Part shown: positions 36,922 to 64,000 of the stretch, piece after piece | Layout of the letters: every line of letters begins with the position of its first letter | Numbering within the stretch: the first letter of the stretch is position 1 | Assembly (NCBI GenBank): GCA_964448095.1 | Contig: CAYUUT010000001.1 | Span: forward strand, 105,829 to 169,828 | Reading direction: 5' to 3' | Length of the DNA stretch: 64,000 bases | Source: an uncultured Candidatus Saccharibacteria bacterium | GTDB taxonomy: Bacteria; Patescibacteriota; Saccharimonadia; Saccharimonadales; UBA10212 | Translations under genes and position numbers: made by a program | The notes under the pieces: generated by a model | The model's input: the letters and a program-made list of their open reading frames with translations, nothing else | Told to the model about the DNA's origin: nothing | Database searches by the model: none

Positions 36922-38157
36922 TTAGGAACTGTGAGCGTCTTCGTTTAGCTTAGCTTCAGCATCCGGGTCGTCAGCTTTATAGTCAGAAAAGAAAGTTGCC
37001 GGCGCCGAAGCATCTTGATTCTCGCCCTCGGGTGCTGGCAGCAACTCTTCCTTTGCCGATTCCGGCGCCGGCAGCATTGGCTCGTCATCGGTCTCTGGCT
37101 GCGGGCCTGGGGCGTCCTGGTCACTAGGCTTTACTGGTGCTTCACCGCCTTCCAGCAAACGGGCGACATCAGCTGTTACCTCAACCAAGCGGTTGCTATA
37201 ACCCCATTCGTTATCGTACCAGGCGACCACTTTTAATAGATTGCCGCCAACTACGGCAGTTAGGGCCAAATCCACGATGGCCGAATGGCTGTTACCAATA
37301 TAGTCGCTGCTGACTAACGGCTCGTTGCTGACCGCCAAAATTCCCTGGAAGTAAGGATCAGCGGCAGCCTTTTTGAAGACTTCGTTTACTTCTTCGACTG
37401 TAACGTCTTTTTTGGTGACCACCGCGAAGTCGCTCAAAGAAACCACTGGGGTTGGTACGCGTACGCTCATACCGCCAAATATGCCTTTAAGGGCCGGTAG
37501 TGCTTGGGCGGCGGCAATGCTGGCACCGGTTGTTGTTGGCACAATGTTCTCGGCAGCGTTCCGGGCTTCACGTAAATCTTTGGCCGGCGCGTCCTGCAGG
37601 GCCTGGCTGGCTGTGTAGCTGTGAACCGTGGTCATCATGGCCTTCTCGATGCCAAAGTTATCTTCGATAATTGCCATCACCGGCGTAATGCAGTTAGTGG
37701 TACAGGAAGCATTACTGATAATCTCACCGGCGTCTTTGAGGCTGTCCTCATTTACGCCAATCACGATAGTGTTGGCCCCTTCGCCCTTTGCCGGCGCGCT
37801 GATAACAACCTTCTTGGCGCCGCCGGTTATGTGGGCCTTGGCTTTTTCCGGGTCAACAAAATGGCCGGTCGATTCAATGACTACCTGCACTCCCAGGTCT
37901 TTCCATGGCAGCGCCGCCGGATCCTTCTCGGCCAGGACTCTGATTTTTTGGTCGTCGACTATAATATTTTGCTCATCAAAATCCACTTTGTGACTGTAAG
38001 CGCCATAGTTTGTATCGTGCTTAAGCAGATGCGCCAGAGTTTTGGTATCGGTTAAATCATTAACGGCTACGACTTCTAGATCCGGTCGCTCAAAAGCAAT
38101 TTTAAAAGCATTGCGGCCGATTCGTCCGAAACCATTTATAGCAATCTTGGTTTTCAT
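36922..38157 (-). CDS. gap: Type I glyceraldehyde-3-phosphate dehydrogenase with a ~75-aa acidic/Pro-rich C-terminal tail
   Basis: NGFGRIGR NAD-binding motif and the catalytic SNASCTTNC. The tail PSDQDAPGPQPETDDEPMLPAPESAKEELLPAPEGENQD... lies beyond the normal C-terminus. Confidence 0.9.
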   Translation of the reverse strand: MKTKIAINGFGRIGRNAFKIAFERPDLEVVAVNDLTDTKTLAHLLKHDTNYGAYSHKVDFDEQNIIVDDQKIRVLAEKDPAALPWKDLGVQVVIESTGHFVDPEKAKAHITGGAKKVVISAPAKGEGANTIVIGVNEDSLKDAGEIISNASCTTNCITPVMAIIEDNFGIEKAMMTTVHSYTASQALQDAPAKDLREARNAAENIVPTTTGASIAAAQALPALKGIFGGMSVRVPTPVVSLSDFAVVTKKDVTVEEVNEVFKKAAADPYFQGILAVSNEPLVSSDYIGNSHSAIVDLALTAVVGGNLLKVVAWYDNEWGYSNRLVEVTADVARLLEGGEAPVKPSDQDAPGPQPETDDEPMLPAPESAKEELLPAPEGENQDASAPATFFSDYKADDPDAEAKLNEDAHSS

Positions 38158-49374: not shown

Positions 49375-50112
49375 TTATACAAAACGAGTCACTAGGAATA
49401 TGAAGGCTACGCCTAGCAGTGTTAGGCCGAAGGAGTTGCGTGAACTGTTTTTGGAGTGGGCTTGCGGTAATAGGTTGCTGGCCGCCACATATAGAATAAG
49501 CCCGGCAAAAAACGCTAGATAAATTCCCAGAACCTTCTCGCTTAAATTAAACGCCAGGCTTAGCAGGCCACCCACTATCGGCATTAGAACCACTAGCCAC
49601 AGCCAGCCTTTGATCTGGCGTAGTTTGTTTTTATGGAAGACCATAAAAGTGGTGGTATCAAAGCCGTCTGCAAAACGGTGTCCAACTACCGCCAGGGCTA
49701 CAGCCAACCCCACCGATGAGCTGGCTTGAAAAGCTACGCCAATGCTTAGCCCGTCCATAAAACTATGCCCGGTAAGCGCGACTGCCCGTACTGTACCCAG
49801 GCGCGGATGGCGGTGCGGGCCATAGGCTTCTTCGCTCGCTTCGTGCACCGGCACCCAGCGTTCAAACGTGTGGAACAGCAAAAATCCCGTAGTCATAGCT
49901 ATCATCGGATAAACTGAATCTAGGTTGTCGTTTTTAACGATATCGAAAATTTCGGGTAGTAGATCGAACATTACCAAACCCAACACCAGTCCGGCAGTTA
50001 AGGCCAATGCACGGTTTAGCCACTTGCGGCTACGCAGAGCCGTTATACCGCCGGCCAGAGCCGCAATAGACGCGGCAACCGTAAATAAGAAAACTTCCAT
50101 GCGTCCAATCAT
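49375..50112 (-). CDS. zupT: ZIP-family divalent metal (zinc) transporter
   Basis: HSFMDGLSIGVAFQ and HRFADGF motifs. About 8 TM helices. Confidence 0.8.
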   Translation of the reverse strand: MIGRMEVFLFTVAASIAALAGGITALRSRKWLNRALALTAGLVLGLVMFDLLPEIFDIVKNDNLDSVYPMIAMTTGFLLFHTFERWVPVHEASEEAYGPHRHPRLGTVRAVALTGHSFMDGLSIGVAFQASSSVGLAVALAVVGHRFADGFDTTTFMVFHKNKLRQIKGWLWLVVLMPIVGGLLSLAFNLSEKVLGIYLAFFAGLILYVAASNLLPQAHSKNSSRNSFGLTLLGVAFIFLVTRFV

Positions 50113-50128
50113 AATTAAGCTTTATTAT

Positions 50129-50138
50129 ATTTGCAAAT
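50129..50138. promoter_or_regulatory. 10-bp perfect palindrome ATTTGCAAAT in the AT-rich divergent promoter region between the ZIP transporter and the Fur-family regulator; candidate Fur/Zur operator half-sites
   Basis: Palindrome in the 54-bp intergenic region ttatatttgcaaatttgtcgcaatt. Confidence 0.3.
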
Positions 50139-50166
50139 TTGTCGCAATTAACTGTATTATTGATAC

Positions 50167-50583
50167 ATGCATCACGATAACCTTAAGGCAATTTTAAAGA
50201 AAAACGGCTCTAGCCTAACTAAAACCCGGCGGATGGTTTTTGACCTGCTTATAGGTGAGGATCCGCAAAGCATGCAGGTACTTATCAAACGAGCCGGCGA
50301 TAAATTGGATCGGGCGACAATCTACCGCACAATAGATTTATTTGAACAATTGGGTATAGTGCACCGGCTTAACGTCGGTTGGAAATATAAAATCGAACTT
50401 AGTGACTTATTTGTTAGTCACCACCACCACTTTTATTGCACCAACTGCGGAGCGACTTTTAACCTATCGCCCGGGACTATGCTGGAGAAAATGATAGATT
50501 CAACCGCCGCTAAAGAAGGCTTGTCAACCCGTTCGCACCAGCTAGAGATTTACGGCCTGTGCAGCCAGTGCTCTAAACCCTAA
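50167..50583 (+). CDS. zur: Fur-family metalloregulator (likely Zur)
   Basis: Winged-helix N-terminus. C-terminal HHHHFYCTNCG...CSQC metal sites. Divergent from the ZIP transporter. Confidence 0.75.
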   Translation: MHHDNLKAILKKNGSSLTKTRRMVFDLLIGEDPQSMQVLIKRAGDKLDRATIYRTIDLFEQLGIVHRLNVGWKYKIELSDLFVSHHHHFYCTNCGATFNLSPGTMLEKMIDSTAAKEGLSTRSHQLEIYGLCSQCSKP

Positions 50584-52034
50584 ACACCGGCAGTAATATC
50601 GGGTTTAACTTTTTCGTTTTTGACAACCAGCAGCGCAACAACTGCCGCCACCGCGGCCAGGCCGCAGCCTACAAGCAAACCGTCATGGAAGCCACTAACT
50701 TGGGCATGGGCGTACGAAACGCCGGTGGCAATTTGGCTCTTGAATGTCGAGGCGTAAACCGCTGATAGAATTGCCAGGCCAATGGCGCCGCCAATTTGTT
50801 GGCTGGTGTTTAGAATACCCGAAGCAATCCCGGAAAAGTGTTTGGGTACGCCCGAGGTAGCGGCCAAGGTCATCGATATGAATGATAGCCCCATGCCGAA
50901 CGCGCAAAGCGCCAAACCGGGGAAGACGTTGTGCCAATAGTTGCCGCCGACTTCCATGGTGGTGCTGATGGTATAGAGGCCTAGGCTAAGGACTATCGGG
51001 CCGGCAACCAAAAATGGTTTGTAGCCGATTTTATTGACCAGATTTGAAACTACGCCCGAAGTAATTGCGATAATTATGGTTACCGGCAAGAAAGACACGC
51101 CGGCCTTAGCTGGGCCATAACCCAGTACGGTCTGAACGTAAAGGGTCATGAAGAAAAACATAGAAAACAAAGTACAGGCAATGGCCAAAGCCGTGGCGTT
51201 GCCTCCGGCCACGTTTCTGATCCTAAATAACTTGAGCGGTAACAATGGCTGGTCGGTGCGGGATTCGTTGATAACAAACGCTATCAACAGTATGGCGCTG
51301 GCTGCCAAAAAACTTATCACCCTGGAGGAACCCCAACCGTGCTTTGGTGCCTCAGACAAACCGTAGACCAAGGCCATCAAACCGGTTGTGGCCAGTACTG
51401 CTCCCGGTAAATCGAGCTTGAGCTTCTTATTTTCCTCACCGATTTGGTGCGCCAGCAGACGCATCGACGCCAAAACTACGAAAATGCCAACCGGCACATT
51501 CACAAAGAAGTTCCAGCGCCAGCTCAGATACTGAGTTAGAATACCGCCCAAAAGCACGCCAACGGCCGCACCGCCGGCGGCCACGGCTGCCCAAACTCCC
51601 AGTGCGGTATTGCGTTCTTTGCCTTCCCTGAACTCAGATAGCACAATCGATAGGGCCGCCGGCGACATGAAAGCCGCCGCCAAACCCTGAAATGCCCGGG
51701 CGATAATTACTTGGGTATCGGTGGCAGCCATCCCGCACAAAAAGGACATTAGAACAAAGAAGGATACGGCGGCAATAAAGATTTTACGGCGCCCGTAAAG
51801 GTCGGCGGCTCGGCCGCCAAGCAGTAAAAAGCCGCCGAAGGTCAGAGTATAAGCAGTCACCACCCACTGCAATGAACTGGGCGCAAAGTGCAGGTCGCGG
51901 GCCATAGAAGGCAGCGCCACGTTAACAATCGATACGTCCAGTACAACCATGAACTGGGCCAGTGCCAGCAACGCCAAAATCACCCATTTATTTTCCGAAT
52001 GCTTAGATAGTTCTTTTTTGACTTTAGCGACCAT
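50580..52034 (-). CDS. MFS transporter, 14-TMS DHA2 (EmrB/QacA-like) drug:H+ antiporter family
   Basis: MFS motif A GRAADLYGRRK. About 14 predicted helices. The ATG lies one codon inside the track TTG start. Confidence 0.8.
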   Translation of the reverse strand: MVAKVKKELSKHSENKWVILALLALAQFMVVLDVSIVNVALPSMARDLHFAPSSLQWVVTAYTLTFGGFLLLGGRAADLYGRRKIFIAAVSFFVLMSFLCGMAATDTQVIIARAFQGLAAAFMSPAALSIVLSEFREGKERNTALGVWAAVAAGGAAVGVLLGGILTQYLSWRWNFFVNVPVGIFVVLASMRLLAHQIGEENKKLKLDLPGAVLATTGLMALVYGLSEAPKHGWGSSRVISFLAASAILLIAFVINESRTDQPLLPLKLFRIRNVAGGNATALAIACTLFSMFFFMTLYVQTVLGYGPAKAGVSFLPVTIIIAITSGVVSNLVNKIGYKPFLVAGPIVLSLGLYTISTTMEVGGNYWHNVFPGLALCAFGMGLSFISMTLAATSGVPKHFSGIASGILNTSQQIGGAIGLAILSAVYASTFKSQIATGVSYAHAQVSGFHDGLLVGCGLAAVAAVVALLVVKNEKVKPDITAGV

Positions 52035-52136
52035 CAAACCTCCCTAATTTAGACTTACAACTATCATAACTAAGTTAGAGTCAGCCACCAAATCAAAACT
52101 TACTTTAGACTGAAAAATCGGCTAAACTAAAGCGTG

Positions 52137-53318
52137 ATGGACGATCCTAAGAAAAAAGTATTAATTCTAGGTGGTGGCTTTGCCGGCATTAAAGCCGCGC
52201 TAGAGCTATCCAGAGACCTCGATTTTGAAGTCACACTGCTGTCTGACCAGTCCAGTTTCCGCTACTATCCTACGCTGTTTCACGCCGCTACCGGCGGCAA
52301 AATGTCTGCTTCGTCGATAGCGTTGGATGAAATCTTTGAAGGCAAGCCGGTAAAAATAGTTAAGGGTAGCGCTAAGTCTTTGGACGGCTCAGCTAAAAAA
52401 GTCAGCTCTGCTGGCGGCAAGGTTTACGATTACGACATTTTGATTGTCGCTCTGGGCGTGATTACTAATTATTTTGGTATCAAAGGTCTGGAAAAATACG
52501 CCTACGGTATTAAGACTCAGGACGAGGCCAGCAGACTGCGTGACCATATTCACAGGCAAATAGTCGACGACAAAAAACCGGACGTTAACTATGTGGTGAT
52601 TGGTGGTGGTCCGACCGGCGTGGAGTTGGCCGGAGCCCTGCCAACTTATATAAAGCATGTGATGCAGCGCCACAATTTGCCAGACACCCGTTTGCACATA
52701 GATTTGGTCGAAGCCGCTCCGCGGCTGATGGCCCGTATGCCCGGCAGCTATTCTTATGCCGCGCAAAAGCATCTGCGCAAACTGGGTATTAAACTCTACC
52801 TGGGCCAAACCGTAGAGGCCGAGACAGTGGACGGGCTGACGGTCAGCGGCCATTCAATCGATAGCCATACGGTCATTTGGACTGCCGGCGTCACCAACCA
52901 CCCCTTTTTGAAAGACAACAATTTTGTGCTGGATAACCATGGTAAAGCGGTGGTGGATGAATTTTTGCAAAGTGAGCATGATATTTACGTGATTGGCGAT
53001 AATGCCTCGACCCAGTATTCAGGTATGGCCCAGACCGCGCTGTATGACGCCAGTTTTGTAGCCGCGAATATCAAACGCCTGGCGGCGGGCAAAAATCCAA
53101 AAGCTTACAAGCCCAAACGACCGGTCTACGTAACGCCGGCCGGACCGCGCTGGGCAGCTGTACAGTGGGGCGGCCTGCACCTTTACGGCTGGATTGGCTG
53201 GGCGCTGCGCAGCGCCGCCGATTTAATGGGCTTTCACGATTACGAGCCCTGGTGGAAGGCCTCACAGCTATGGCTGGACGAAAACGAAGAAGAAAAGATC
53301 TGCACTATTTGCTCTTAG
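52137..53318 (+). CDS. ndh: Type II NADH:quinone oxidoreductase (NDH-2)
   Basis: Two dinucleotide folds: VLILGGGFAGIKAA and VVIGGGPTGVELAGAL. Confidence 0.75.
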   Translation: MDDPKKKVLILGGGFAGIKAALELSRDLDFEVTLLSDQSSFRYYPTLFHAATGGKMSASSIALDEIFEGKPVKIVKGSAKSLDGSAKKVSSAGGKVYDYDILIVALGVITNYFGIKGLEKYAYGIKTQDEASRLRDHIHRQIVDDKKPDVNYVVIGGGPTGVELAGALPTYIKHVMQRHNLPDTRLHIDLVEAAPRLMARMPGSYSYAAQKHLRKLGIKLYLGQTVEAETVDGLTVSGHSIDSHTVIWTAGVTNHPFLKDNNFVLDNHGKAVVDEFLQSEHDIYVIGDNASTQYSGMAQTALYDASFVAANIKRLAAGKNPKAYKPKRPVYVTPAGPRWAAVQWGGLHLYGWIGWALRSAADLMGFHDYEPWWKASQLWLDENEEEKICTICS

Positions 53319-53359
53319 CCGGTTCTCAGCTTGGCGTGCTGATATGATTTAGGTAAGTT

Positions 53360-54856
53360 ATGAATACTTTAGCGAAATTCTACCAGCGGCCAATGGATAT
53401 GATTGATGGGCTGCTCGATGGCCTGACGTCTTACAGACTGCTGCTGTATTTTCTTATAACGCTCCTGGGCTGGGCGACGCTAATTAGTTTTGACCATAAA
53501 TTACCCTATAACTGGCATGCGATTCTGTTGTCGGCGCTATTACTCGTAGTTGTTTGCCGGGCTTTTGGCGAGTTATTCGCCCGGGTTTTAAATATCCCCC
53601 GAAACTTTGAGTCAGATTACATCACGGCTTTGATTTTAGCTCTGATTTTGTCACCGACTACTGGCCGTGTCGGCTTCGCGGTGTTAGCTGGCGCCGGTTT
53701 TGCGGCTATCGCTTCAAAATATCTGTTGATAATCCATCGGCAGCACATTTTTAATCCGGCAGCTTTTGGCGCAGCAGTAGCCGGTATTTTATTCCATCAG
53801 TATGCCAGTTGGTGGGTTGGCACGGCCTCGCTTGCCCCGCTGGTGTTAGTTGGCGGCCTTCTAATAATGCGTAAAATGAAGCGTTTTTGGATGATAACTA
53901 TTTTTACGTTGGTCTATGGTGTGTTTTTACACCAACAATTTGACGGCGCTCCGCCGCTGCACACTATCTGGCTGGCAGCCTCCGCTACCGGTGTGATGTT
54001 CTTCGCGTTTGTTATGTTAACCGAACCACTGACTTCGCCCGACGCGTTTAGCAAATATCTGCCCTACAGTATTCTGGTCGGAGTATTGTACAGCGTAACT
54101 AAATTGCGTCTCAGCCCCGAAGAGGCTTTGCTGATTGGCAATGCCTTCGCCTACGCGCTAGTGCGCGGCAAACGCTTGCAACTTTATGCTAGCAACGCAG
54201 TCAAAGAGGCTGAAGGCATTTACAGCTTTAGCTTCGAATATCATGGCCTGTTCGATTTCAATCCTGGACAATATATGGAATGGACCCTGCCGCTGCGTCA
54301 CAGCGACAGCCGCGGCAACCGCCGCTATTTCACATTGTCATCTTCACCTACCGAGCACCAGCTGGCGTTCACTGTCCGGATACCCAAAGACTCCAGCCAC
54401 TTCAAACAGGCCCTAAAGAGCTTCCAGCCGAATGACAAAATGTTGGCCTCACATCTTGGCGGTTCATTCTTGCTGCCTAAAAACCAGCAACAAAAGTTGG
54501 CGTTTGTTGCTGGCGGCATCGGCGTCACGCCATTCCGCTCAATGATTAAATACCTAATAGATAAACGCCAGGAACGCGACGTTAGTCTGATTTACGCGGC
54601 CAATAAAGAAAGTGAGTTCGCCTTTACGGAGATTTTTGCCCAGGCAAAAAATATTGGCCTCAAGACTAACTACTTGTTGACTGCTCGGCAGCCGCTGCGG
54701 GCACCGGACATCACCGCCGCCATTCCGGATTATCATGAAAGGCTGTTTTATTTGTCCGGGCCTTACGGCTTTGTAAAATCTGCCAGAGAGTCGTTGCTAG
54801 GGGTCGGCGTTAGCGTGAAAAATATCAAATCAGACTACTTCCCGGGCTACAATTAG
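53360..54856 (+). CDS. Fusion protein: N-terminal NqrB/RnfD-like polytopic membrane domain + C-terminal NqrF/FNR-like FAD/NAD(P)H oxidoreductase domain
   Basis: YITALILALILSPTTG and HIFNPAAFGAAVAGILF match the RnfD/NqrB signatures (SALLTGLLLA...PP, NPFNPAM). MLTEPLTSP resembles the RnfD flavinylation motif (LTDPVTAST). The C-terminus carries RRYFTLSSSP (the RxYS FAD site) and GGIGVTPF (the NAD site). Confidence 0.6.
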   Translation: MNTLAKFYQRPMDMIDGLLDGLTSYRLLLYFLITLLGWATLISFDHKLPYNWHAILLSALLLVVVCRAFGELFARVLNIPRNFESDYITALILALILSPTTGRVGFAVLAGAGFAAIASKYLLIIHRQHIFNPAAFGAAVAGILFHQYASWWVGTASLAPLVLVGGLLIMRKMKRFWMITIFTLVYGVFLHQQFDGAPPLHTIWLAASATGVMFFAFVMLTEPLTSPDAFSKYLPYSILVGVLYSVTKLRLSPEEALLIGNAFAYALVRGKRLQLYASNAVKEAEGIYSFSFEYHGLFDFNPGQYMEWTLPLRHSDSRGNRRYFTLSSSPTEHQLAFTVRIPKDSSHFKQALKSFQPNDKMLASHLGGSFLLPKNQQQKLAFVAGGIGVTPFRSMIKYLIDKRQERDVSLIYAANKESEFAFTEIFAQAKNIGLKTNYLLTARQPLRAPDITAAIPDYHERLFYLSGPYGFVKSARESLLGVGVSVKNIKSDYFPGYN

Positions 54857-55513
54857 CGCCCGATAATCCTTCTGCTTTTTCATGAAATTCTCGGCCCTCA
54901 AACCCATGGCAAAACAAGCCGTGGCCAGCGCATCAGCCGTGATAATATCCGGGCCAACGACTGTCACACTTAATAGTTCATCAGCCGGCCGGCCGGTCTT
55001 TGGATTGATGATGTGCTGGCCACGTTCGTAGTTGCCGCTGGTAGCAACCGCTCCGGAAAAAATACTTAACTTGTTAAGTATTTTTTTACTATCGGTTGGA
55101 TCCTGAATGCCTATCTTCCACTCTTTGTTGCCGTCGCTTCTGGCCAGAATATCGCCGCCAATACTCATGCAAAATGTCTTAATTCCTTTTTTGTCCAGAA
55201 GCTTCCCTGCCTCAGCGATGGCCCAACCTTTGACATAGCCGGTTGGATCAAATTTGCCGGAAAAATAAGCCGAGAAATATCCATCCGTCAGTCTTTCGAA
55301 CTTGGTGCAGGCTTTTTTAATGGTTGCCATTTCCTCGCTCAAACCAACTTCTCCCCGCTGATACCTCGCCAGCTCGCTATTTTTTTTGTAAGAGCTAAAG
55401 CGTTCGTCAATTTTTCTTAATAATTTAAAGACTTCTTCGAATATGGCTTCATCCTTAGCCGCGGGGACGTCCAGGCTCACTCCTGTCCCCATAATAACTC
55501 GGTTGCGACGCAT
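54830..55513 (-). CDS. apbE: FAD:protein FMN transferase (ApbE family), short form lacking a signal peptide
   Basis: IMGTGVSL N-terminal motif, FDPTGYVKGWA, SIGGDI and AVATSGNYERGQHIINPKTG. Convergent with, and overlapping the 3' end of, the NqrB-FNR fusion gene. Confidence 0.75.
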   Translation of the reverse strand: MRRNRVIMGTGVSLDVPAAKDEAIFEEVFKLLRKIDERFSSYKKNSELARYQRGEVGLSEEMATIKKACTKFERLTDGYFSAYFSGKFDPTGYVKGWAIAEAGKLLDKKGIKTFCMSIGGDILARSDGNKEWKIGIQDPTDSKKILNKLSIFSGAVATSGNYERGQHIINPKTGRPADELLSVTVVGPDIITADALATACFAMGLRAENFMKKQKDYRALIVAREVV

Positions 55514-55518
55514 AAGTT

Positions 55519-56007
55519 TTACGAGCTAGCGGCTTTATCTAACGCTGCTTGAAGAGACTGCTCAAAGCCATAGCTGTCGCTGGTAGCTCCAGAGACAAAA
55601 TCGATATGCGCACTTTGTTTTTGCAGGGCTGTTTGCTTTAGGAGTGGCTCGGCCGCGGCTGCGATGGCACGCGAATTTCCCAAATCATTGGGCATCTGCA
55701 AGAAATTGATATCGGTTATTTTGCCACCGCTGATTACGGCCGCAACTTGGACGGTACCATAGGGCGTTTGAGCGGCAGAGCCTATATAGTTGCCGTCCTT
55801 GTAGCCTTGGCCTGAGGCAGCGTTACTTGAATTACTGGACGCCACGGTTGAGACTGCGCTGCCACCCTGATTAGTGGCTATGACTGCCGGCGTATTAGTT
55901 TTGGGACTACTTATTAGCAAAGCGCTGGTATTCCCGCTCTTATTAACGTAAAGCCCAAGGCCGCCTAAAATGGCTATAGTCATAACTACTAGGAGTGATC
56001 TTTTCAT
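55519..56007 (-). CDS. Secreted/membrane-anchored FMN-binding domain protein (FMN_bind, an ApbE substrate type)
   Basis: Signal anchor LLVVMTIAILGGLGL. YKDGNYIGSAAQTPYGTVQVAAVISGGKITDINF and a C-terminal DFVSGATSDS flavinylation motif. Confidence 0.7.
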   Translation of the reverse strand: MKRSLLVVMTIAILGGLGLYVNKSGNTSALLISSPKTNTPAVIATNQGGSAVSTVASSNSSNAASGQGYKDGNYIGSAAQTPYGTVQVAAVISGGKITDINFLQMPNDLGNSRAIAAAAEPLLKQTALQKQSAHIDFVSGATSDSYGFEQSLQAALDKAASS

Positions 56008-56114
56008 CTACCTAATTCTAGCAAGTTCTTGCTGAGATTTAACTTAGGCTAATGTAAGTTCAGTCTGCCGGAAAAAGCGTCGTCTAAGCTTCAGCCCGTT
56101 ATAATAAAGCTAGC

Positions 56115-57095
56115 ATGAGATTTATATTACTTTTGCTAGAAATTATTTTCCTGTTGAGCCTGTCGGCTATCTGCTCCGGTCTGAATGTATCCTTCACTTC
56201 GTTGGATATGGCCGATTTGGAGCGCAAGAGCAAATTGGGCAACAAGGGCGCTCAGAGGATTCTGGCTTTGCGGCGGAACAGCCACCTAACGCTGGCCAGT
56301 ATTCTAATGACCAATGTGGCAGTTATTTCGACGACTTCGCTGGTTCTGCATAGCTGGGTCAACAGCATCGCCGCCGGAATTATCAGCACGCTTCTGATTG
56401 TCGTCTTTGGCGAAGTTATACCTCAGGCCTTCTTCACTCGCTACGCCCTGGGCTTCACAGCCTTCTTCGCGCCATTCCTAAGGCTAATTACCGTCATCAC
56501 CTACCCTGTATCCAAGCCTCTGCAGCTGGTACTGGATAGACTCATCGGCCAGGAAAAGATGCAGCTTCAAAGCCGGGCCGAGTTAGGCTTGCTCATAACC
56601 CAGCACAGCGGACGGCACGGCAGCGAATTGGATGAGGACGAAATTGAAATTATCCGCGGCGCCCTGAGACTGAGCCAGCGGCGCGTCAAGGACATCATGA
56701 CGCCCATTGAGAAGGTTTATTGGCTGACACCTGACACCGTCATTGACGGCGTTAAAATCGACCAACTGAAGCTTAAGGGTCATAGCCGGATACCAATTTT
56801 CAATGGAGCCAAAACTAGAGCCTTCGGCGTCTTGATGATGAAGGACTTAGTGGATATAGATTTCGACGACGAAAAACATACGGCTAGTGATTTACCGCAA
56901 CGGCCGACTACGATGGTCGGCAGTCTGACGGCTCTGGATACCATGTTTCGTAAGTTCATCAGCGCCCACAGTCACTTGATGGCAGTTGAGCGCGATGATA
57001 AGATCGTCGGCATCATAACGATTGAGGACTTGCTGGAAGAGATTATCGGCCACGAGATTGAGGATGAGTCCGACCGCAGTCGCAGACTTAGCTAA
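56115..57095 (+). CDS. CNNM/CorC (HlyC/CorC) family protein: DUF21 membrane domain + CBS pair
   Basis: N-terminal 4-TM DUF21. CBS domains (IMTPIEKVYWL..., ...VGIITIEDLLEEIIG). Confidence 0.8.
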   Translation: MRFILLLLEIIFLLSLSAICSGLNVSFTSLDMADLERKSKLGNKGAQRILALRRNSHLTLASILMTNVAVISTTSLVLHSWVNSIAAGIISTLLIVVFGEVIPQAFFTRYALGFTAFFAPFLRLITVITYPVSKPLQLVLDRLIGQEKMQLQSRAELGLLITQHSGRHGSELDEDEIEIIRGALRLSQRRVKDIMTPIEKVYWLTPDTVIDGVKIDQLKLKGHSRIPIFNGAKTRAFGVLMMKDLVDIDFDDEKHTASDLPQRPTTMVGSLTALDTMFRKFISAHSHLMAVERDDKIVGIITIEDLLEEIIGHEIEDESDRSRRLS

Positions 57096-57141
57096 AGAAA
57101 CTTATTTCGTTCAGCTCAGGTGGTAAGAAGCCGTTCTCGTG

Positions 57142-57312
57142 CTAGAAATTGGCTTGCCATTTATAGCCTTTGTTGTAGCCCAGGTCTTTCATCAACTTGG
57201 TTGGGGCGTTGCGCAACGGATTGTAGCTCTTCGGCAGAAAATGCAGATAAACCAGGAAGGCCGTACTAATGCCGATAAAGAGCAGTATAAAAGCTCCTAG
57301 CAAAGGGTCCAT
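57142..57312 (-). pseudogene. 56-codon ORF: an N-terminal hydrophobic helix fused to a diverged copy of the RarA C-terminus ([20 protein letters not shown]); likely a displaced 3' remnant of rarA
   Basis: The translation [56 protein letters not shown] matches RarA residues encoded at about 60690-60830 ([20 protein letters not shown]) at 18 of 20 positions. Nucleotide identity is only ~73%. Same orientation as rarA. Confidence 0.4.
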
Positions 57313-57478
57313 GCTCAATGTACTACTCCAATCCTAGCCGCCCGCTTGTTTCATATCGCATACTTGTAATCTAGACGAGAAAGTTTAAAATGTTGTTTAT
57401 GATTCGTTTATTCTCCGCCAAAAACTATTACGAGGCTTCCTTAATCTGACGAGAAGCCAGCTTTTAATTTGCATGATG

Positions 57479-57510
57479 AAATCTGCCTTCTCGGGCAGAT
57501 TTTTTAATTT
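57479..57510 (+). terminator. Rho-independent terminator (9-bp stem AAATCTGCC/GGCAGATTT, 6-nt loop, then a T-tract)
   Basis: Canonical hairpin followed by a U-tract, about 390 nt downstream of the CNNM stop. May end a long 3' UTR or a short plus-strand transcript. Confidence 0.5.
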
Positions 57511-57554
57511 GTTCGAGAGCACCTAACCCTACTACGGAAAGTGAGGCACTGCGC

Positions 57555-57935
57555 GTGACCACTTTTAAGGCTCTCATCAAGAGGGCTAGAAAGTTCGCCT
57601 GGTACTACAACCGGGCGGTGGTACTGGGAACTCTCCAGCGTGACATGACGCCGCACATCGTCTTCGCGGATTTGCGTGAAGGCGATGTCATCGGCTTCGA
57701 GCTGCCGGGAACACTGGTAAGTGTGAGAGTGGTGGACACAGCCCTGCAGCTAGTGGTGCCGTGTAGGTGGCACTACAAGTCAGGCAAGATGCAGTTCCGC
57801 GGCCATGCCATTGCCGCTGGACGCCACACCACCTTTGGCAGCTCCCGCTGGGCTGGCAACTACATCACGCTAGCGCCGGCCCGGAGAATCCTACTCAATG
57901 GGAAGCCCATCCCTGAAGGCAGGTTGCTACGGTAG
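57555..57935 (+). CDS. Hypothetical basic 126-aa protein, GTG start, elevated GC (~58%, GC3 ~75%)
   Basis: A GTGAGG Shine-Dalgarno-like element upstream. No family recognised. Confidence 0.4.
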   Translation: MTTFKALIKRARKFAWYYNRAVVLGTLQRDMTPHIVFADLREGDVIGFELPGTLVSVRVVDTALQLVVPCRWHYKSGKMQFRGHAIAAGRHTTFGSSRWAGNYITLAPARRILLNGKPIPEGRLLR

Positions 57936-57943
57936 GGCAAATA

Positions 57944-57973
57944 GGGGCTGCGGTGGCACACCACCGCAGCCCC
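57944..57973. terminator. Perfect 13-bp GC hairpin (GGGGCTGCGGTGG-CACA-CCACCGCAGCCCC) with no U-tract; candidate bidirectional/I-shaped terminator
   Basis: Sits between the convergent 126-aa ORF and the methyltransferase gene. Confidence 0.45.
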
Positions 57974-58020
57974 TACTCAAACTGACCGCCCGCTTGGTTT
58001 TTCTCGGGTTTATAAGAGCC

Positions 58021-58698
58021 CTACTTGGGCAGGTTGGCGCGAGGAATCACGATAGTATCCATTTTATCGGGCCGGTCAGGGTCAAAATGCCTCGTTAGGG
58101 GCGGAAAGTAGCTATGGAACTCAATGTCATTATCAAAACAAACTGTTCTGGCGGCTTCCATGGTTTGAGGATCAGAGGTTACCAGAAACTTACCATTTTC
58201 ATCTAGGGCCGGCCCGACCTCGTGCAACAATCGTCCTATTCTGCTACCAAAATAGTCCGGGCCAAACATAAAGGCAGCCACTAAATCGAACCTTTTGCCT
58301 TTGCGATTCAATTGCCTTAAAGTCCATGCACCGTCGCCTATGTGGATATTCTCGGGCGGTAGGATGCCGCTTATAGCGATCTCTGCAGCGTGCTCCGGCT
58401 CTAATTCGGCCGCTTCTACACTACCGCCGTTCAGTGTCGCCAAGCGCCCCAATGCATAGGTGGCTCCGCCCGTGCCGGCGCCATATTCAAATATTCTTTT
58501 AGATGCCCGTAAATCAAGTTGCCCCTGTATCGCCATAACGTTGAGCGAATGTTGAGCTCTTACTGCGGCCAGCTGCTGCCAGGGGTGCAGTTCTGTGAAA
58601 TCAAGGTAAGCTTCTACGCATAAGCGCAAATCCCCGACTTCATGCGATGTTTTAGAAGTGCTCGCCATAATATATAAGTTTAATTGATAATTATACAA
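58021..58698 (-). CDS. Class I SAM-dependent methyltransferase (not an obvious DNA MTase; no DPPY/NPPY motif)
   Basis: Motif I IFEYGAGTGGATYAL. Motif II/III-like DLVAAFMFGPD. Confidence 0.6.
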   Translation of the reverse strand: MYNYQLNLYIMASTSKTSHEVGDLRLCVEAYLDFTELHPWQQLAAVRAQHSLNVMAIQGQLDLRASKRIFEYGAGTGGATYALGRLATLNGGSVEAAELEPEHAAEIAISGILPPENIHIGDGAWTLRQLNRKGKRFDLVAAFMFGPDYFGSRIGRLLHEVGPALDENGKFLVTSDPQTMEAARTVCFDNDIEFHSYFPPLTRHFDPDRPDKMDTIVIPRANLPK

Positions 58699-58789
58699 TA
58701 GTTTTTGATTTATGCAACGGAAACCGCCCGCCCCATACCATAAAGCTACGAGGTAAACTTATTTTGAGCGTTAGATATAAAATAAGGGT

Positions 58790-60031
58790 ATGGGGACCGA
58801 TTATCGGCGCAACCACTATGTTCCTGAGTGGTATCAAAAAAACTTTATCCCGCCCGATGGTTCGGGGAAGCTATTTTATTTAAGACTAAAGCCGAAGGAG
58901 TTCAGAGACTCAAAGGGAGGGATTCATCTTGAACCCGCCCTGCGCGAGTCTAGTCCAGGACAGTGCTTCTACCAAAAGGATCTTTATACCACGAGGTTTG
59001 GCGCAAATGTATCCCGAGATATTGAGAGGTACTTCTTCGGCCTGATGGATACAAATGGTCAAAAAGCAGCCAATCACTTCGCTAACTACGTTTTCCCTAA
59101 CTGGGATGGTAAGCCGGTTCAAGACCTCATAACTTACCTGAGTACCCAGAAACTAAGAACCCCCAAAGGATTAGACTGGTTAGCAAACACGCTGGGTACT
59201 ACAGACGGAAACCGGACCTTAATCGAGATGCAAAGATTCCAGGATGTTTTTTGTGCCACATGGGTAGAGTGTGTGTGGCAAATAGCAGACGCTGAAAGTT
59301 CCGATACTAAGTTCATTATTTCTGACCACCCCGTGACTATATACAATCGCGAATGCGGCCCACGGAATAAGAAGTGGTGTCGAGGCTCCAATGACCCTGA
59401 CATTCGCCTTCAAGGCTCGCATACTGTTTTTCCTCTCAGTCTGAATAAAGTCTTGATATTGACGAATATGTCTTGGGTGCGCAACCCATATCAATCAGCA
59501 GTTGGCGAACGTCCCAACCCGACTCTCTACCACAGTACCGTATTTGACTTCCACCGGTTACAAATTAATAGACGCCTGTCGGAGCAAGAAGTCAGAGAAA
59601 TTAATTTCGTTATTAAAAGTCGGGCTTATGACTACATAGCCGCTGGTAAAGAAGAGTGGCTGTACCCTGAGAAATTCATCACGAAATCAAATTGGAATGT
59701 TTACGGCGATGGTTTGCTATTTATGCCCGATCCTCGCTCATTCAATTATGGCGGTGAGGTATATGGAGGTAATAATAGTGGCCCGACCTTTGCAGTGGAT
59801 TCATATGGGCGAAAGCCTGGGGACCCAAATTTCGGAAAGGAAGATATCCCCCCGAACCAAAGCACTCTGCCACTTTATCGATTCCAGGGGGATTTTGCTC
59901 GCAAATTTGGCACACACCGACGAGGAGTAGCTATGGAGTTTGGGGAGCTTGAGGACGAGGTAGACACTGAAACCTACCACGAGTATCACCTTGGCTTGGG
60001 GAAGCAAAAGAAATCAAAAAACATAATTTAA
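58790..60031 (+). CDS. DUF4238-like protein (413 aa)
   Basis: The N-terminal RNHYVPEWYQKNF resembles the DUF4238 signature (HY[VI]PQFYL[KR]NF) as I recall it. Atypical codon usage (AGA, AGG, CTA, TTA). Confidence 0.5.
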   Translation: MGTDYRRNHYVPEWYQKNFIPPDGSGKLFYLRLKPKEFRDSKGGIHLEPALRESSPGQCFYQKDLYTTRFGANVSRDIERYFFGLMDTNGQKAANHFANYVFPNWDGKPVQDLITYLSTQKLRTPKGLDWLANTLGTTDGNRTLIEMQRFQDVFCATWVECVWQIADAESSDTKFIISDHPVTIYNRECGPRNKKWCRGSNDPDIRLQGSHTVFPLSLNKVLILTNMSWVRNPYQSAVGERPNPTLYHSTVFDFHRLQINRRLSEQEVREINFVIKSRAYDYIAAGKEEWLYPEKFITKSNWNVYGDGLLFMPDPRSFNYGGEVYGGNNSGPTFAVDSYGRKPGDPNFGKEDIPPNQSTLPLYRFQGDFARKFGTHRRGVAMEFGELEDEVDTETYHEYHLGLGKQKKSKNII

Positions 60032-60237
60032 TATTGGGTCCGGGCATCGGCTCAAACAGAAGACTGAGTGCAGCCAAAAAGATGTCGGCCAAACGTATGT
60101 TTGAGCGAAGCGAGGCCGGCTTGGCCCACTTTTTGGCAAGCGAAGTCGCTCTGCTTTGAACGCAGCCCGGCGGTTTGCCACACTTTGCCGTTCAAAGTGT
60201 GAAAATTTTAGGACTTTTGAAAAAAAGACCAGTAGCC

Positions 60238-60678
60238 TTATCGCCTGTTTGCAAAATTATCGAGTTTCTTGCCAATCACATACCCCAAAGCTGCTAGTGT
60301 GACTATAGGCCCGACAAGAATAGAAATCTCTGCTAGCTCCGCATGAGTGCTGAAATCAGCATTCTGGACTTCTCTCTGCGTAGGGACATATCCAACATAT
60401 TGTCGATCTATTCCGTAGTGGCCGTATCTATCAACCCCCATGACTCCAAGAATGATGCCGCCAATCATGCCACCGACACTGAGGACAAGGTCAGCTCCTT
60501 CAATCGGTTCTTCGTCGTCATTGCCCCATCTCCTGCCGCCTTCGCCGCCTCTGTCATTGCCATTATTGCCGCCGTTCCCACCGCCACCACCAAACTGTCT
60601 CTCAAACTCTGTCAAGTCTGTTAGTCTAATCTCTCCACCAGCGGGTCGCTCTAATGTAGCCGTCATCTTATCGAACAT
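60238..60678 (-). CDS. Glycine-rich membrane protein (146 aa)
   Basis: GGGGGNGGNNGNDRGGEGG low-complexity segment followed by 2-3 hydrophobic helices. Immediately downstream of rarA on the same strand. Confidence 0.45.
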   Translation of the reverse strand: MFDKMTATLERPAGGEIRLTDLTEFERQFGGGGGNGGNNGNDRGGEGGRRWGNDDEEPIEGADLVLSVGGMIGGIILGVMGVDRYGHYGIDRQYVGYVPTQREVQNADFSTHAELAEISILVGPIVTLAALGYVIGKKLDNFANRR

Positions 60679-61900: not shown

Positions 61901-62818
61901 TCACTTCGCCGGTTGGTCGGGGTTAATCTCGTGGCCGCCAAACTTGTTACGCATAGCGGATAATAGTTTGGTGGCGAAGTTGATCTCGCCATTTTGGCTA
62001 GCAATACGAATGTCAAAGGCCGTTTGGATGGCTGGCATCGGAATATTCATTTCCTTGGCGACTTCCAGCGTCCAACGAGCTTCGCCGGATTCAGCTACAA
62101 CGCCGTCGATGCCTGCCAGCTGGGGATTTTCGGCCAGAGCTTTTTGTGACAACTCATTCAACCAGGAAGTCACCACGCTGCCGTGCTGCCAAACTTCGCC
62201 AGCCGCCGCTAAATCCAACTCTTTATATGGACCTTCTTTTAGGATACGGTAGCCTTCTGCCAAGCTCTCCATCATGCCGTACTCAATGGCGTTGTGGACC
62301 ATCTTTACAAAATGACCGCTGCCGCTGGGTCCAAAATACTGATAGGCGCCGCTAGGCTTGGCCAGAGTTTTGAGCACCGGCTCGACCACTTTAAAAGCTG
62401 TGTTGTCGCCACCAGCCATCATCGAAAAGCCATTTTTGTAGCCCCAGACACCGCCGCTGGTACCAACATCCAGAAGTGTTGAACGGGCAGCCGCAACCTT
62501 ATCAGAGCGTTTTTGGGTTAGCCGAAAATCAGAATTACCGCCGTCAATTATCAAGCTGCCCTCCGGCGCTAAAGCTAGCCAAGCGCCTAGCTCCTCGTCT
62601 ACCACGTTCGCTGGTATCATCAGCCACAGCATTAACTGCTCGCCCACAAAGGCTTTAATTACATCTTCTTTTTTATAGGCGGCTTTGGCGCCATAAGTAA
62701 CGGCCTCGTCAACCTTCTCCGGGCTGCGGTTTTGGGCGTAGACCTCGTGTCCGTCTTCGGCTAGTTTGCGGGCGATTTGCATGCCCATCCGGCCCAAGCC
62801 GGCAATTGCGATTTTCAT
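61901..62818 (-). CDS. gnd: 6-phosphogluconate dehydrogenase, decarboxylating, short (~300 aa) form
   Basis: MKIAIAGLGRMGMQIARKL NAD(P) fold and the 6PGD C-terminal domain. The track start at 62836 is TTG; the ATG is at 62818. Confidence 0.8.
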   Translation of the reverse strand: MKIAIAGLGRMGMQIARKLAEDGHEVYAQNRSPEKVDEAVTYGAKAAYKKEDVIKAFVGEQLMLWLMIPANVVDEELGAWLALAPEGSLIIDGGNSDFRLTQKRSDKVAAARSTLLDVGTSGGVWGYKNGFSMMAGGDNTAFKVVEPVLKTLAKPSGAYQYFGPSGSGHFVKMVHNAIEYGMMESLAEGYRILKEGPYKELDLAAAGEVWQHGSVVTSWLNELSQKALAENPQLAGIDGVVAESGEARWTLEVAKEMNIPMPAIQTAFDIRIASQNGEINFATKLLSAMRNKFGGHEINPDQPAK

Positions 62819-63477
62819 AGTGCTTCTCCTATCCAATTATTAAATACTATAAACCTTGGCAGCTTTTTTAGCAGCTGGGCCGGCATTTTTTCAATCGTTA
62901 TATCCTGCTGCAGCTGCGCTACTATGGGTTTTTTCTTGTCGTCGCTCAGGCTAACGACAGCCTCGTCCAATAACTCCAAGGCCTTAGGGGTAGTAGTTAT
63001 ACGCTGATAATCTGGACCTTGGTAGTGAGTAACTAAGCCTTTTGCGCTTAGCGCCGGGCTGTCTGGCAAAATGCCCGAAGTGTGACCATCCGGGCCAATA
63101 CCTGCTAGGGCGATTTTGAAATCAGCCTGTTTGAGTTGCTTTGACAGCTCGTCCTGAAATTTAGCGGTTGTTTCTTCTAGTCCAAGTCCGCGCAAAACCG
63201 GTACGGTGTTCAGGCCGGAAAAGTCAAAGCCGGAGTCGAGTAATTGTTGCCAGTTGGAATCGGCGTGGCCATCAGGACCGTAACGTTCGTCAATCAGAGT
63301 TACAGTAAGATTGCTCAGGTTCTTGCCCTCCAGCCGCTTACGGGTCGCTACCGCCAGGCCAATGGAGCTGCCGCCGGACAACAACCACAAAACCTTTTCA
63401 TCTAATAAAAGGTGCTCGTTTATAACCTGGGCTAAGTACTCCGCCGCCTGACCGGGCGTTTGTTTGATAAAAGTCAC
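62815..63477 (-). CDS. pgl: 6-phosphogluconolactonase
   Basis: VLWLLSGGSSIG...IALAGIGPDGHTSGILP is the Pgl/DevB signature. Confidence 0.8.
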   Translation of the reverse strand: MTFIKQTPGQAAEYLAQVINEHLLLDEKVLWLLSGGSSIGLAVATRKRLEGKNLSNLTVTLIDERYGPDGHADSNWQQLLDSGFDFSGLNTVPVLRGLGLEETTAKFQDELSKQLKQADFKIALAGIGPDGHTSGILPDSPALSAKGLVTHYQGPDYQRITTTPKALELLDEAVVSLSDDKKKPIVAQLQQDITIEKMPAQLLKKLPRFIVFNNWIGEAL

Positions 63478-64000
63478 GGCTGCTCTTCCCCTATAACTTC
63501 TGCAACTGTGCTACCAGGCTTATAAAAACGTAAGTCCGCCGAGGTCTTAGACCAGGTATCCAGCAGCGGCTGCAGCACCCGCCAGCTTTCAATAATCTCC
63601 GGACTGCTAGCAAACAAGCTGTGGCTGCCGCGCATGGCATCCACCAGCACTTGCTCGTAAGCATTCGGCAGCCGGGCAAAGTCTTTTTCGTAATCAAAAC
63701 TCAGGGGTTTTTCCTCCAGATTAGGCTCGTAGCCTGGTTTCTTAATCCACAGCTCCAGCTCAATGCCTTCATTGGGCTGAATGCGCAGCTTCAGGGTATT
63801 AGCCTCCGAAGCTTCGGTTTTCTTAAAATGCACGGTGATTTCGCTCAGACGTTCGTTAAGATTCTTGCCGGTGACCAAATGTATGGGCACACCCTGCCAG
63901 CGGGGATTTTTAGAGCTCAGTTCGATAGCCACGAAGGTTTCGATTTCCGAGCCAGGATTTTTTACTTCTTCGCAGTAGCCGTCGTACTGGGCGCGCAAGG
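63474..64000 (-). CDS. zwf: Glucose-6-phosphate dehydrogenase, C-terminal domain only; the gene's 5' end lies beyond the window
   Basis: RAQYDGYCEE, ETFVAIEL and RWQGVPIHLVTGK... match the G6PD C-terminal domain. The ORF is open at the window end. Confidence 0.8.
   Translation of the reverse strand, partial: LRAQYDGYCEEVKNPGSEIETFVAIELSSKNPRWQGVPIHLVTGKNLNERLSEITVHFKKTEASEANTLKLRIQPNEGIELELWIKKPGYEPNLEEKPLSFDYEKDFARLPNAYEQVLVDAMRGSHSLFASSPEIIESWRVLQPLLDTWSKTSADLRFYKPGSTVAEVIGEEQP

Follow-up and report, generated by a model that had tools for sequence, protein, structure and literature searches.

Méheust et al. (2021, eLife, PMC8238504) gave the name "NQR/RNF-like system" to a fusion of PF03116 and PF00175 found in a flavinylation gene cluster, in which ApbE and/or FMN_bind lies no more than five genes away and at least one of them has a predicted export signal. 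The system was reported to be enriched in the candidate phyla radiation (CPR) and to show a link to VIT1. Huang et al. (2024, mSystems, PMC11334425) modelled the complex of Ktedonobacter, and found that the fusion has not kept the flavinylation site of NqrB/RnfD and that an NqrC/RnfG-like subunit places its flavinylated residue beside the vacated flavin pocket. A protein with NqrF and NqrB domains had been described in a soil Saccharibacterium together with NDH-2 and cytochrome bo3 and without quinone synthesis (Starr et al., 2018), and similar observations were made by Nicolas et al. (2021). Here we analysed a stretch of 64,000 nucleotides (nt), which we call the window, from an uncultured Candidatus Saccharibacteria bacterium (contig CAYUUT010000001.1, positions 105,829 to 169,828), with a focus on four genes that encode an NDH-2-family flavoprotein, an NqrB/RnfD-FNR fusion protein, an ApbE flavin transferase and an FMN_bind protein. 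The last three are a member of the already described, very widespread NQR/RNF-like class, and we consider it likely that they provide a two-subunit, flavin-only transmembrane NAD(P)H dehydrogenase that passes electrons one way, outward. An earlier note on this DNA had recognised the module correctly, but it was mistaken about the role of NDH-2, the flavinylation of the membrane domain, the analogy with Listeria and the degree of surprise that the system deserves in this organism.

Results

All four open reading frames (ORFs) were found side by side as claimed, and the Pfam matches of all four proteins exceeded the gathering scores. They do not form one operon. NDH-2 and the fusion gene lie on the + strand and FMN_bind and ApbE on the - strand, giving two convergent units, with an overlap of 27 nt (54830-54856) between the 3' ends of the fusion and ApbE genes.

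The fusion gene (53360-54856, + strand) encodes a protein of 498 amino acids (aa), in which an NqrB/RnfD-like polytopic membrane domain (residues 1-272, 53360..54175) is followed by an FNR-type FAD/NAD(P)H dehydrogenase domain (residues 273-498, 54176..54856). Both parts were matched by Pfam: NQR2_RnfD_RnfE (PF03116) on residues 59-252 with 35.3 bits (cut-off 27.7), and NAD_binding_1 (PF00175) on residues 382-431 with 32.5 bits (cut-off 22). The C-terminal part also carries the predicted RRYFTLSS and GGIGVTPF motifs and matches flavohaemoprotein reductase and NqrF in sequence, which bears out its assignment as an FNR-type reductase. For the N-terminal domain, a single-sequence phmmer search of the PDB gave chance matches only, and the family profile gave a lone weak match, the RnfD chain 8ahx_D (E 0.039). 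In order to compare folds, the protein was modelled with AlphaFold2, with a pLDDT of 88.9 for the full-length fusion and 84.1 for residues 1-272. In Foldseek, the full-length model matched nothing but FNR domains (flavohaemoglobin, NqrF and SpNOX, and also the DUOX dehydrogenase), and the separate model of residues 1-272 was used for the fold search of the membrane domain. Against the PDB, the top 15 matches of this model were all RnfD or NqrB chains with a probability of 1.00, E-values of 2e-5 to 5e-3 and TM-scores of 0.57-0.70, and the subsequent matches had E-values of 0.9 or more. Profile and fold therefore agree on the RnfD/NqrB identity that had been proposed for this domain.

We then aligned the membrane domain with E. 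coli RsxD using hhalign. The probability of this alignment was low (12%, E 0.0025), and we accept it only since the motifs that it pairs are consistent with Pfam and with the fold comparison: NFESD...ILSP was paired with KDNSA...IPPL, FNPAA with FNPAM, and MLTEPLTSP with ILTDPVTAS. The RsxD loop of about 70 residues that contains GISQAT187PLD has no counterpart in the fusion, where SW and WVG are joined directly, and its place is occupied by the invariant W151-W152-x-G154 (53810-53821). The loop bearing the flavinylated Thr is deleted, and therefore the membrane domain is not an ApbE substrate. All peptide motifs quoted in the earlier note are present in the proteins, but two of them had been misread. 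The segment TEPLTSP (54020-54040), taken there to resemble an FMN-attachment motif, is not such a site, because it pairs with TDPVTAS of RsxD, the conserved TDPxT motif of RnfD/NqrB, and the T187 loop is the part without a counterpart. The other, SGATSDS, is a genuine ApbE target motif of the FMN_bind protein, but it spans residues 139-145 of 162 and is not the end of the protein. A flavinylation target on the cytoplasmic side of the fusion was considered too, and was rejected as no [ST]GA[ST]-type motif is present.

Across 24 homologues, the invariant positions of the membrane domain were W151-W152-x-G154, N132-P133-A134-A135 and E222-P223-x-T225-x-P227, and those of the FNR domain were R321-R322-Y323-x-T325, G385-G386-x-G388-x-T390-P391, S466-G467-P468 and a C-terminal D-Y-F-P-G-Y. 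C66 is the sole near-invariant Cys, and the fusion has no Pfam match to Fer2, so that the relay must run from flavin to flavin. The "FeS domain" attributed in 2018 to the NqrF/NqrB-type protein is unsupported for the same two reasons. K+R are frequent in three segments, with means of 4.1 (N-terminus), 3.9 (loop 6, MRKMKRF) and 2.4 (the linker before the FNR domain), and scarce in the SWW loop (mean 0.8) and loop 7 (0.1). This charge bias fits a predicted topology with the FNR domain inside and the SWW loop outside.

The partner protein, an NqrC/RnfG-like subunit of 162 aa (55519-56007, - strand), matched FMN_bind (PF04205) with 31 bits (cut-off 22). It begins with MKR and a transmembrane signal anchor (hydropathy 1.94), followed by a low-complexity linker and the C-terminal FMN_bind domain, and no lipobox Cys is present in its N-terminus (MKRSLLVVMTIAILGGLGLYVNK). 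In an alignment with the solved FMN-binding domains 8p2a and 3o6u, the flavinylation motif DFVSGATSDS (55573-55602, - strand) falls on their SGAT. The conserved Thr expected there is in place, and T142 (codon 55582-55584) is the predicted flavinylation site. In 75 related loci, the FMN_bind partners likewise start with MKK and a transmembrane segment, and in nearly all of them D-x-[VI]-[ST]-G-A-[TS] stands some 26 residues before the C-terminal end. The charge bias around the anchor is modest, typically with 2 K/R before the helix and 0-2 after it; the predicted topology is that of an N-in/C-out signal anchor with an extracytoplasmic domain.

ApbE (54830-55513, - strand) was confirmed as a flavin transferase (PF02424, 7.7e-45, 153.9 bits) with an intact catalytic core, but it is unusually short (227 aa) and has no signal peptide. 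It aligns with the ApbE structure 6nxi, which we take to be V. cholerae ApbE, and the catalytic His is kept in RGQHIINP; the corresponding residue is Gly in 6nxj, presumably the H257G mutant of the same enzyme. A hydropathy scan found no hydrophobic segment in the window protein, and its stop-to-stop ORF extends only 4 codons upstream of the ATG. The same was seen across phyla: 69 of 70 operon ApbE proteins lack a signal peptide or lipobox, in 36 of the 70 ORFs the conserved MG[MT] is preceded by fewer than 20 in-frame codons, and a hydrophobic in-frame extension was found once (1/70, locus L037). As the operon ApbE is leaderless, it is puzzling how an extracytoplasmic FMN_bind protein becomes flavinylated. 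The most economical idea would be flavinylation in the cytoplasm before translocation of the C-terminal domain of FMN_bind, which is possible in principle because ApbE recognises a short linear motif.

To place the module among its relatives, we searched for homologues of the fusion protein. Of the 8,000 candidates that were scored, more than 7,000 reached significance; nearly all of the first 120 were full-length (about 500 aa) with 49-71% identity, and the closest named relatives were Candidatus Saccharimonadales/Saccharibacteria. A pattern scan of one genome per GTDB species gave at least 586 confirmed loci, which span many classes of Patescibacteria, Chloroflexota (Ktedonobacteria, Dictyobacter), Alpha- and Gammaproteobacteria and Spirochaetia. 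Gene neighbourhoods were compared in the best 80 of these loci, with a single genome from the clade of the window, and seven closer Saccharimonadales relatives were looked up in addition. The fusion has an FMN_bind gene in its neighbourhood in 75 of 83 loci and an ApbE gene in 70 of 83, in Patescibacteria, Chloroflexota, Proteobacteria and Spirochaetia alike, and a tight same-strand order of FMN_bind -> ApbE -> fusion occurs in 62 of 80. Because the family is so large and is common in Patescibacteria, and the system has been reported as CPR-enriched, its presence in a reduced genome of this kind is not unexpected, contrary to what had been thought.

In the clade of the window, the module is embedded in a conserved block of seven genes, ZIP(-) Fur(+) MFS(-) NDH-2(+) fusion(+) ApbE(-) FMN_bind(-), here at 49375-56007. 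This block was found in six of the seven relatives, at 52-66% fusion identity, and likewise in L004 from the GTDB scan, so that the block loci are L004 and L085-L090. The closest relative (L001-L003, 71% fusion identity) has a different order, with ZIP, GIY-YIG, Fur, fusion, an unknown gene of 272 aa, ApbE and FMN_bind and no MFS gene; in L001, the gene immediately before the fusion is Fur, in the same orientation. ZIP and Fur are kept in 9 of 9 sampled Saccharimonadales lineages (L001-L004, L085-L090). Housekeeping synteny on the left flank (glycoside hydrolase, RmuC) is conserved in this clade as well. Elsewhere the neighbours are others: in other phyla the operon is followed immediately by genes for a histidine kinase (in 18 loci) and for an OmpR-type regulator (in 16), and CopA adjoins the module in 10 loci.

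The NDH-2-family flavoprotein (52134-53318, + strand; 394 aa; Pyr_redox_2, 2.3e-41) stands apart from these three genes. Its start had been put at 52137; the gene is there, but it starts with a GTG at 52134, and 52137 is the next ATG. Assignment to NDH-2 with two GxGxxG folds is sound at the family level, as GGGFAG and GGGPTG are present and in the PDB the protein is most similar to YjlD of B. subtilis (8e-38) and to the NDH-2 enzymes of C. thermarum (3e-34) and S. aureus (4e-33), which outrank SQR and other families and include an end-to-end alignment with ordinary NDH-2. The protein scores below every NCBIfam equivalog cut-off; by eye, the AQ of the quinone-site motif AQxAxQ is present as AQTALY. 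No transmembrane helix or C-terminal extension was found, the maximum 19-mer hydropathy being 1.49. The gene accompanies the fusion in 2 of 83 loci, a number that understates the clade-specific linkage because the best-80 sample holds one genome of this clade, and 78 of 80 loci in other lineages have no such gene. It is missing also from the closest relative, where the module is intact. We conclude that NDH-2 is a clade-specific, dispensable neighbour, since the module does without it elsewhere, the closest relative included; by its sequence it is probably a separate NADH:quinone-type enzyme, linked to the module in this clade only.

We further examined the upstream regions. An operator-like sequence, TTTGCAAATTTGTCGCAAT (50129..50147, + strand), lies in the divergent ZIP-Fur intergenic region, where it overlaps a -35-like TTGCAA and a promoter-like match at 50131-50160. 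It is nearly identical in 8 of 8 lineages compared, in contrast to the diverged intergenic sequence around it, and it is probably an autoregulatory operator, as yet a candidate, of the Fur-family protein. No second copy exists in the window, and direct regulation of the module by Fur is therefore unsupported. The module has another motif, a direct repeat of 16 nt (YTWAG-N6-YTCAG, consensus CTTAGCTAAATCTCAG) with half-sites 11 nt apart. One copy, CTTAGCCGGTTCTCAG (53314..53329, + strand), overlaps the stop codon of NDH-2 and precedes the start of the fusion gene by 31 nt; the second, CTAAGTTAAATCTCAG (56032..56047, - strand), lies in sense orientation 24 nt upstream of the FMN_bind start. Ahead of the fusion gene, the motif is present in 7 related loci, among them L004 and also L001, which has no NDH-2. 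Upstream of FMN_bind it was found in 7 related loci (L001, L004, L085, L087, L088, L090 and, ambiguous by eye, L089), and the distances of both copies vary among the loci. In 8 related loci the pattern had 17 matches against 3.15 expected (shuffle maximum 8), 13 of the 17 being at the two positions upstream of fusion or FMN_bind; L004 was left out of the derivation of the pattern, and the statistic is partly circular because the pattern was derived from most of the sequences counted. The motif resembles an OmpR/PhoB-type box, for which it is a candidate, and it suggests that the fusion and FMN_bind-ApbE form a regulon of their own.

The remaining genes of the block are context and not core. 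The first is a ZIP/ZupT-like metal transporter gene (49375..50112, - strand; Pfam Zip 1.1e-17; NCBIfam ZupT 2.1e-18, under its cut-off). It is followed by a Fur-family metalloregulator (50167..50583, + strand; Pfam FUR 6.3e-17), for which NCBIfam ranked Fur above PerR above Zur with every score under cut-off, and by an efflux permease of the DHA2/EmrB-type MFS family (50580..52037, - strand; Pfam MFS_1 5e-55; TIGR00711 287.9 bits, cut-off 230.2). Pfam annotation of about 50 ORFs beyond the cluster (about 60 in total) showed ordinary Saccharibacteria housekeeping genes: tRNA synthetases, DnaE, a ClpB-like protein, type IV pilus parts, glycolysis and the pentose-phosphate pathway. Several small ORFs, none within the cluster, had no Pfam match. 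Among the annotated ORFs there were no genes for cytochrome oxidase, ATP synthase or quinone synthesis, in line with the original observation that no quinone-biosynthesis genes are visible in the window. The sole quinone-related match is a class I SAM methyltransferase (431-1216, - strand), whose weak UbiE/COQ5 similarity (7e-9) ranks below stronger generic methyltransferase matches, and which is no evidence for quinone synthesis. Between 49.3 and 57.2 kb, scans for promoters and terminators did no better than chance, and we therefore claim no operon boundaries; a generic repeat search gave nothing meaningful.

Downstream of FMN_bind, the stretch 56115-60678 reaches as far as an MgsA-like ATPase gene. 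It begins with a CNNM/CBS transporter gene, has a slightly lower GC content (0.473), and contains ORFs without Pfam match at 57555-57935, 58021-58698 and 60238-60678 and a DUF4238 protein at 58790-60031. In the relative L087, MgsA directly follows FMN_bind, and for this reason the stretch of about 4.6 kb looks inserted. A few kb from the module, 61901-63998 (- strand) encodes 6-phosphogluconate dehydrogenase, 6-phosphogluconolactonase and the C-terminal part of G6PD, and in L087 the oxidative pentose-phosphate genes stand immediately beside the module; going by synteny, these genes may supply the FNR domain with NADPH locally. Far from the module, two adjacent ORFs of 320 and 327 aa (7134-8096 and 8146-9129, both - strand) had no Pfam match at E <= 1e-5, and a GAPDH ORF of 411 aa (36922-38157, - strand) has an unassigned C-terminal extension of about 97 residues after its Pfam domains stop at residue 314.

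Discussion

Our results suggest the following path of electrons. A non-covalent FAD in the FNR domain would oxidise NAD(P)H on the cytoplasmic side, and the electrons would cross the membrane through the NqrB/RnfD-like domain, which probably holds a non-covalent flavin. The next acceptor would be the FMN that ApbE is predicted to attach covalently to T142 of the signal-anchored FMN_bind protein. This subunit may dock on an outer-face pocket lined by the invariant SWWVG loop (W151/W152), and its FMN would hand the electrons to an extracytoplasmic acceptor. The earlier literature on the system puts forward this mechanism as well. The path from NADH to a surface flavoprotein that had been envisaged from the start is thus retained for the three-gene module, as a path from NAD(P)H to an extracytoplasmic FMN, but without a role for NDH-2.

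As for the acceptor, the clues favour a metal ion, and thus a function in reductive handling of Fe or Cu, an idea to which we give less than even odds. This proposal is drawn from the gene neighbourhood, namely from ZIP and Fur across the clade, CopA in 10 loci and the published VIT1 link. A more specific version, which we regard as rather doubtful, is that of a haem-free, quinone-free, all-flavin transmembrane NAD(P)H:metal (ferric/cupric) reductase, with an FMN_bind subunit flavinylated in the cytoplasm, as part of a ZIP uptake island controlled by the Fur-family protein. If true, such a metal reductase would be, in bacteria, a functional counterpart of the NOX/FRE/STEAP enzymes with RnfD/NqrB as its scaffold, cytoplasmic flavinylation by the leaderless ApbE would remove the need for FAD export, and fermentative, haem- and quinone-auxotrophic Saccharimonadales cells would have an outlet for NAD(P)H electrons.

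Several points weigh against this picture of an outward, and possibly metal-directed, electron path. ApbE is leaderless in 69 of 70 loci, whereas its only apparent target is the signal-anchored and presumably extracytoplasmic FMN_bind protein. Direct evidence for the second, non-covalent flavin of the membrane domain is lacking, and an experimental characterisation of any member was not found in the searchable literature. On the side of the metal, no shared Fur-type operator is present at the module's own promoters. The linkage of ZIP, Fur and NDH-2 may be plain synteny, because the flanking housekeeping synteny is conserved too. Outside the clade ZIP, Fur and CopA each occur in a minority of loci; two-component systems are commoner there, MacB/HlyD efflux genes are equally common or commoner, and extracytoplasmic function (ECF) sigma factors are equally common neighbours.

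We also weighed three other explanations, to each of which we give a low probability. According to the first, the four genes form a minimal respiratory chain or a system of extracellular electron transfer (EET) like that of Listeria, with electrons passing from NDH-2 to quinone, to the membrane module and to a surface FMN protein. NDH-2 does lie 41 nt upstream of the fusion, on the same strand and without a convincing terminator between them, and of the 9 Saccharimonadales lineages sampled, 8 keep the two genes adjacent, even where fusion identity falls to about 52%. Méheust et al. also take an Ndh gene within a flavinylation cluster as their operational mark of EET, and soil Saccharibacteria have been reported with NDH-2 and cytochrome bo3 in spite of lacking quinone synthesis. 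However, the fusion carries an NAD(P)H-oxidising dehydrogenase domain of its own, so that no quinone step is needed, and the absence of NDH-2 from nearly all other lineages and from the closest relative argues against NDH-2 as part of the chain. Moreover, the regulatory-looking direct repeat separates NDH-2 from the fusion and is kept where NDH-2 is absent.

Comparison with the EET system of Listeria monocytogenes (Ndh2, EetA/B, DmkA/B, FmnA/B, PplA) leads in the same direction. The two are alike in that an NDH-2-family gene adjoins an ApbE-family gene and an FMN_bind surface protein, and in the overall idea that NADH-derived electrons are exported to a covalently bound extracytoplasmic flavin. 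The proposed kinship did not hold, as none of the defining features tested was found. The EET marker of Méheust et al. (PMC8238504) is an NDH-2 with a transmembrane helix or C-terminal membrane domain, whereas the window NDH-2 has no such transmembrane extension. No Pfam match to a UbiA-type DmkA or a polyprenyl synthase DmkB was found within the window. ApbE is not a lipoprotein, unlike FmnB, and the FMN protein is single-domain and helix-anchored, without a lipobox Cys, in contrast to the lipoprotein PplA. Finally, electrons would cross here through an NqrB/RnfD-like and FNR protein instead of quinone and EetA/B. We therefore think it improbable that the locus represents EET of this type.

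The second explanation is that the whole system faces the cytoplasm, FMN_bind being flavinylated and kept inside, and that the complex is a membrane-bound NAD(P)H oxidoreductase. The missing export signal of the operon ApbE and the modest charge bias of the FMN_bind anchor would both suit it, and there is a precedent in Klebsiella, where cytosolic ApbEs are known to serve cytosolic FMN_bind domains. Against this, nearly all FMN_bind partners begin with MKK and a transmembrane helix in the manner of a typical N-in/C-out signal anchor, and the homologous NqrC and RnfG domains are periplasmic. In addition, RsxD homology and charge bias put the pocket vacated by the deleted loop opposite the FNR face, and the published AlphaFold-multimer model docks an FMN_bind-type subunit at this very pocket. 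An inward-facing complex accordingly has little to recommend it over one that passes electrons outward.

The third, a miniature ion-pumping NQR in which an NqrF-like domain oxidises NADH and an NqrB-like domain moves Na+/H+ and possibly reduces scavenged quinone, draws on the NqrB/RnfD fold of the membrane domain, on the established quinone site and implication in ion translocation of NqrB in Na+-NQR, and on the proposal of ion pumping published for the soil Saccharibacterium (Starr et al., 2018), but it is hardly probable in view of the missing NqrA, NqrD, NqrE and Fe-S centre (by Pfam annotation of the window), the missing 2Fe-2S domain of NqrF, the single near-invariant Cys that leaves the FeS domain of the 2018 proposal unsupported, and the strict linkage with an anchored FMN_bind and ApbE, which points to an outward path ending at an outer flavin.

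The module that we favour, ending at an extracytoplasmic FMN, agrees with the NQR/RNF-like system in its main features. PF03116 is followed by PF00175 in one protein, with the fold supported by Foldseek; ApbE and FMN_bind are the next two genes, the latter with an N-terminal helix; and the flavinylated Thr of NqrB/RnfD is lost, while the NqrC/RnfG-like partner has an ApbE target motif. It differs in that the genes of the window form two convergent units instead of an FMN_bind -> ApbE -> fusion operon, and in that the module of this clade is embedded in a ZIP-Fur-MFS-NDH-2 block. Neither PMC8238504 nor PMC11334425 comments on the leaderless operon ApbE or mentions the upstream direct-repeat motif, and we count these two as small new points.

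Na+-NQR and RNF share with the module a homologous NqrB/RnfD membrane subunit, an NqrC/RnfG-type FMN_bind protein, maturation by ApbE and an NqrF-like FAD/NAD(P)H domain. In contrast to the six subunits of Na+-NQR (NqrA-F), only two are present here, NqrA/D/E being absent among the annotated window ORFs; likewise, RnfA/B/C/E and Fe-S centres are absent from the window and from the related loci, whose conserved core consists of three genes. No covalent FMN is predicted on the membrane subunit, as the target loop is deleted, and the predicted flow is one-way and outward as opposed to semicircular. There is no evidence here for ion pumping or for a quinone or ferredoxin partner. The module resembles NOX/FRE/SpNOX in architecture and predicted task, with a polytopic membrane part joined to a dehydrogenase of FNR type in the cytoplasm and NAD(P)H electrons predicted to cross the membrane. 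However, the membrane part is unrelated, its fold being that of RnfD/NqrB and theirs the six-helix di-haem ferric-reductase domain, and the relay is predicted to be flavin, not haem, so that the likeness is to be read as analogy, not homology.

In summary, the NQR/RNF-like class is known from comparative genomics and AlphaFold models only, and the locus described here adds to it a set of mapped sites, namely T142, the SWWVG loop and the true TEPLTSP equivalent. It further adds NDH-2 as a clade-specific add-on, a conserved candidate regulatory motif and the puzzle, posed by a leaderless ApbE, of the side of the membrane on which flavinylation takes place. These findings leave the current picture of the system unchanged and provide handles for a first biochemical characterisation. 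Patescibacteria, Saccharibacteria among them, lack haem and quinone synthesis and most respiratory machinery. For this reason, a widespread and self-contained flavin relay of this kind would be one of the few candidate routes by which such cells may balance their redox state, acquire metals or carry out redox chemistry in their envelope.

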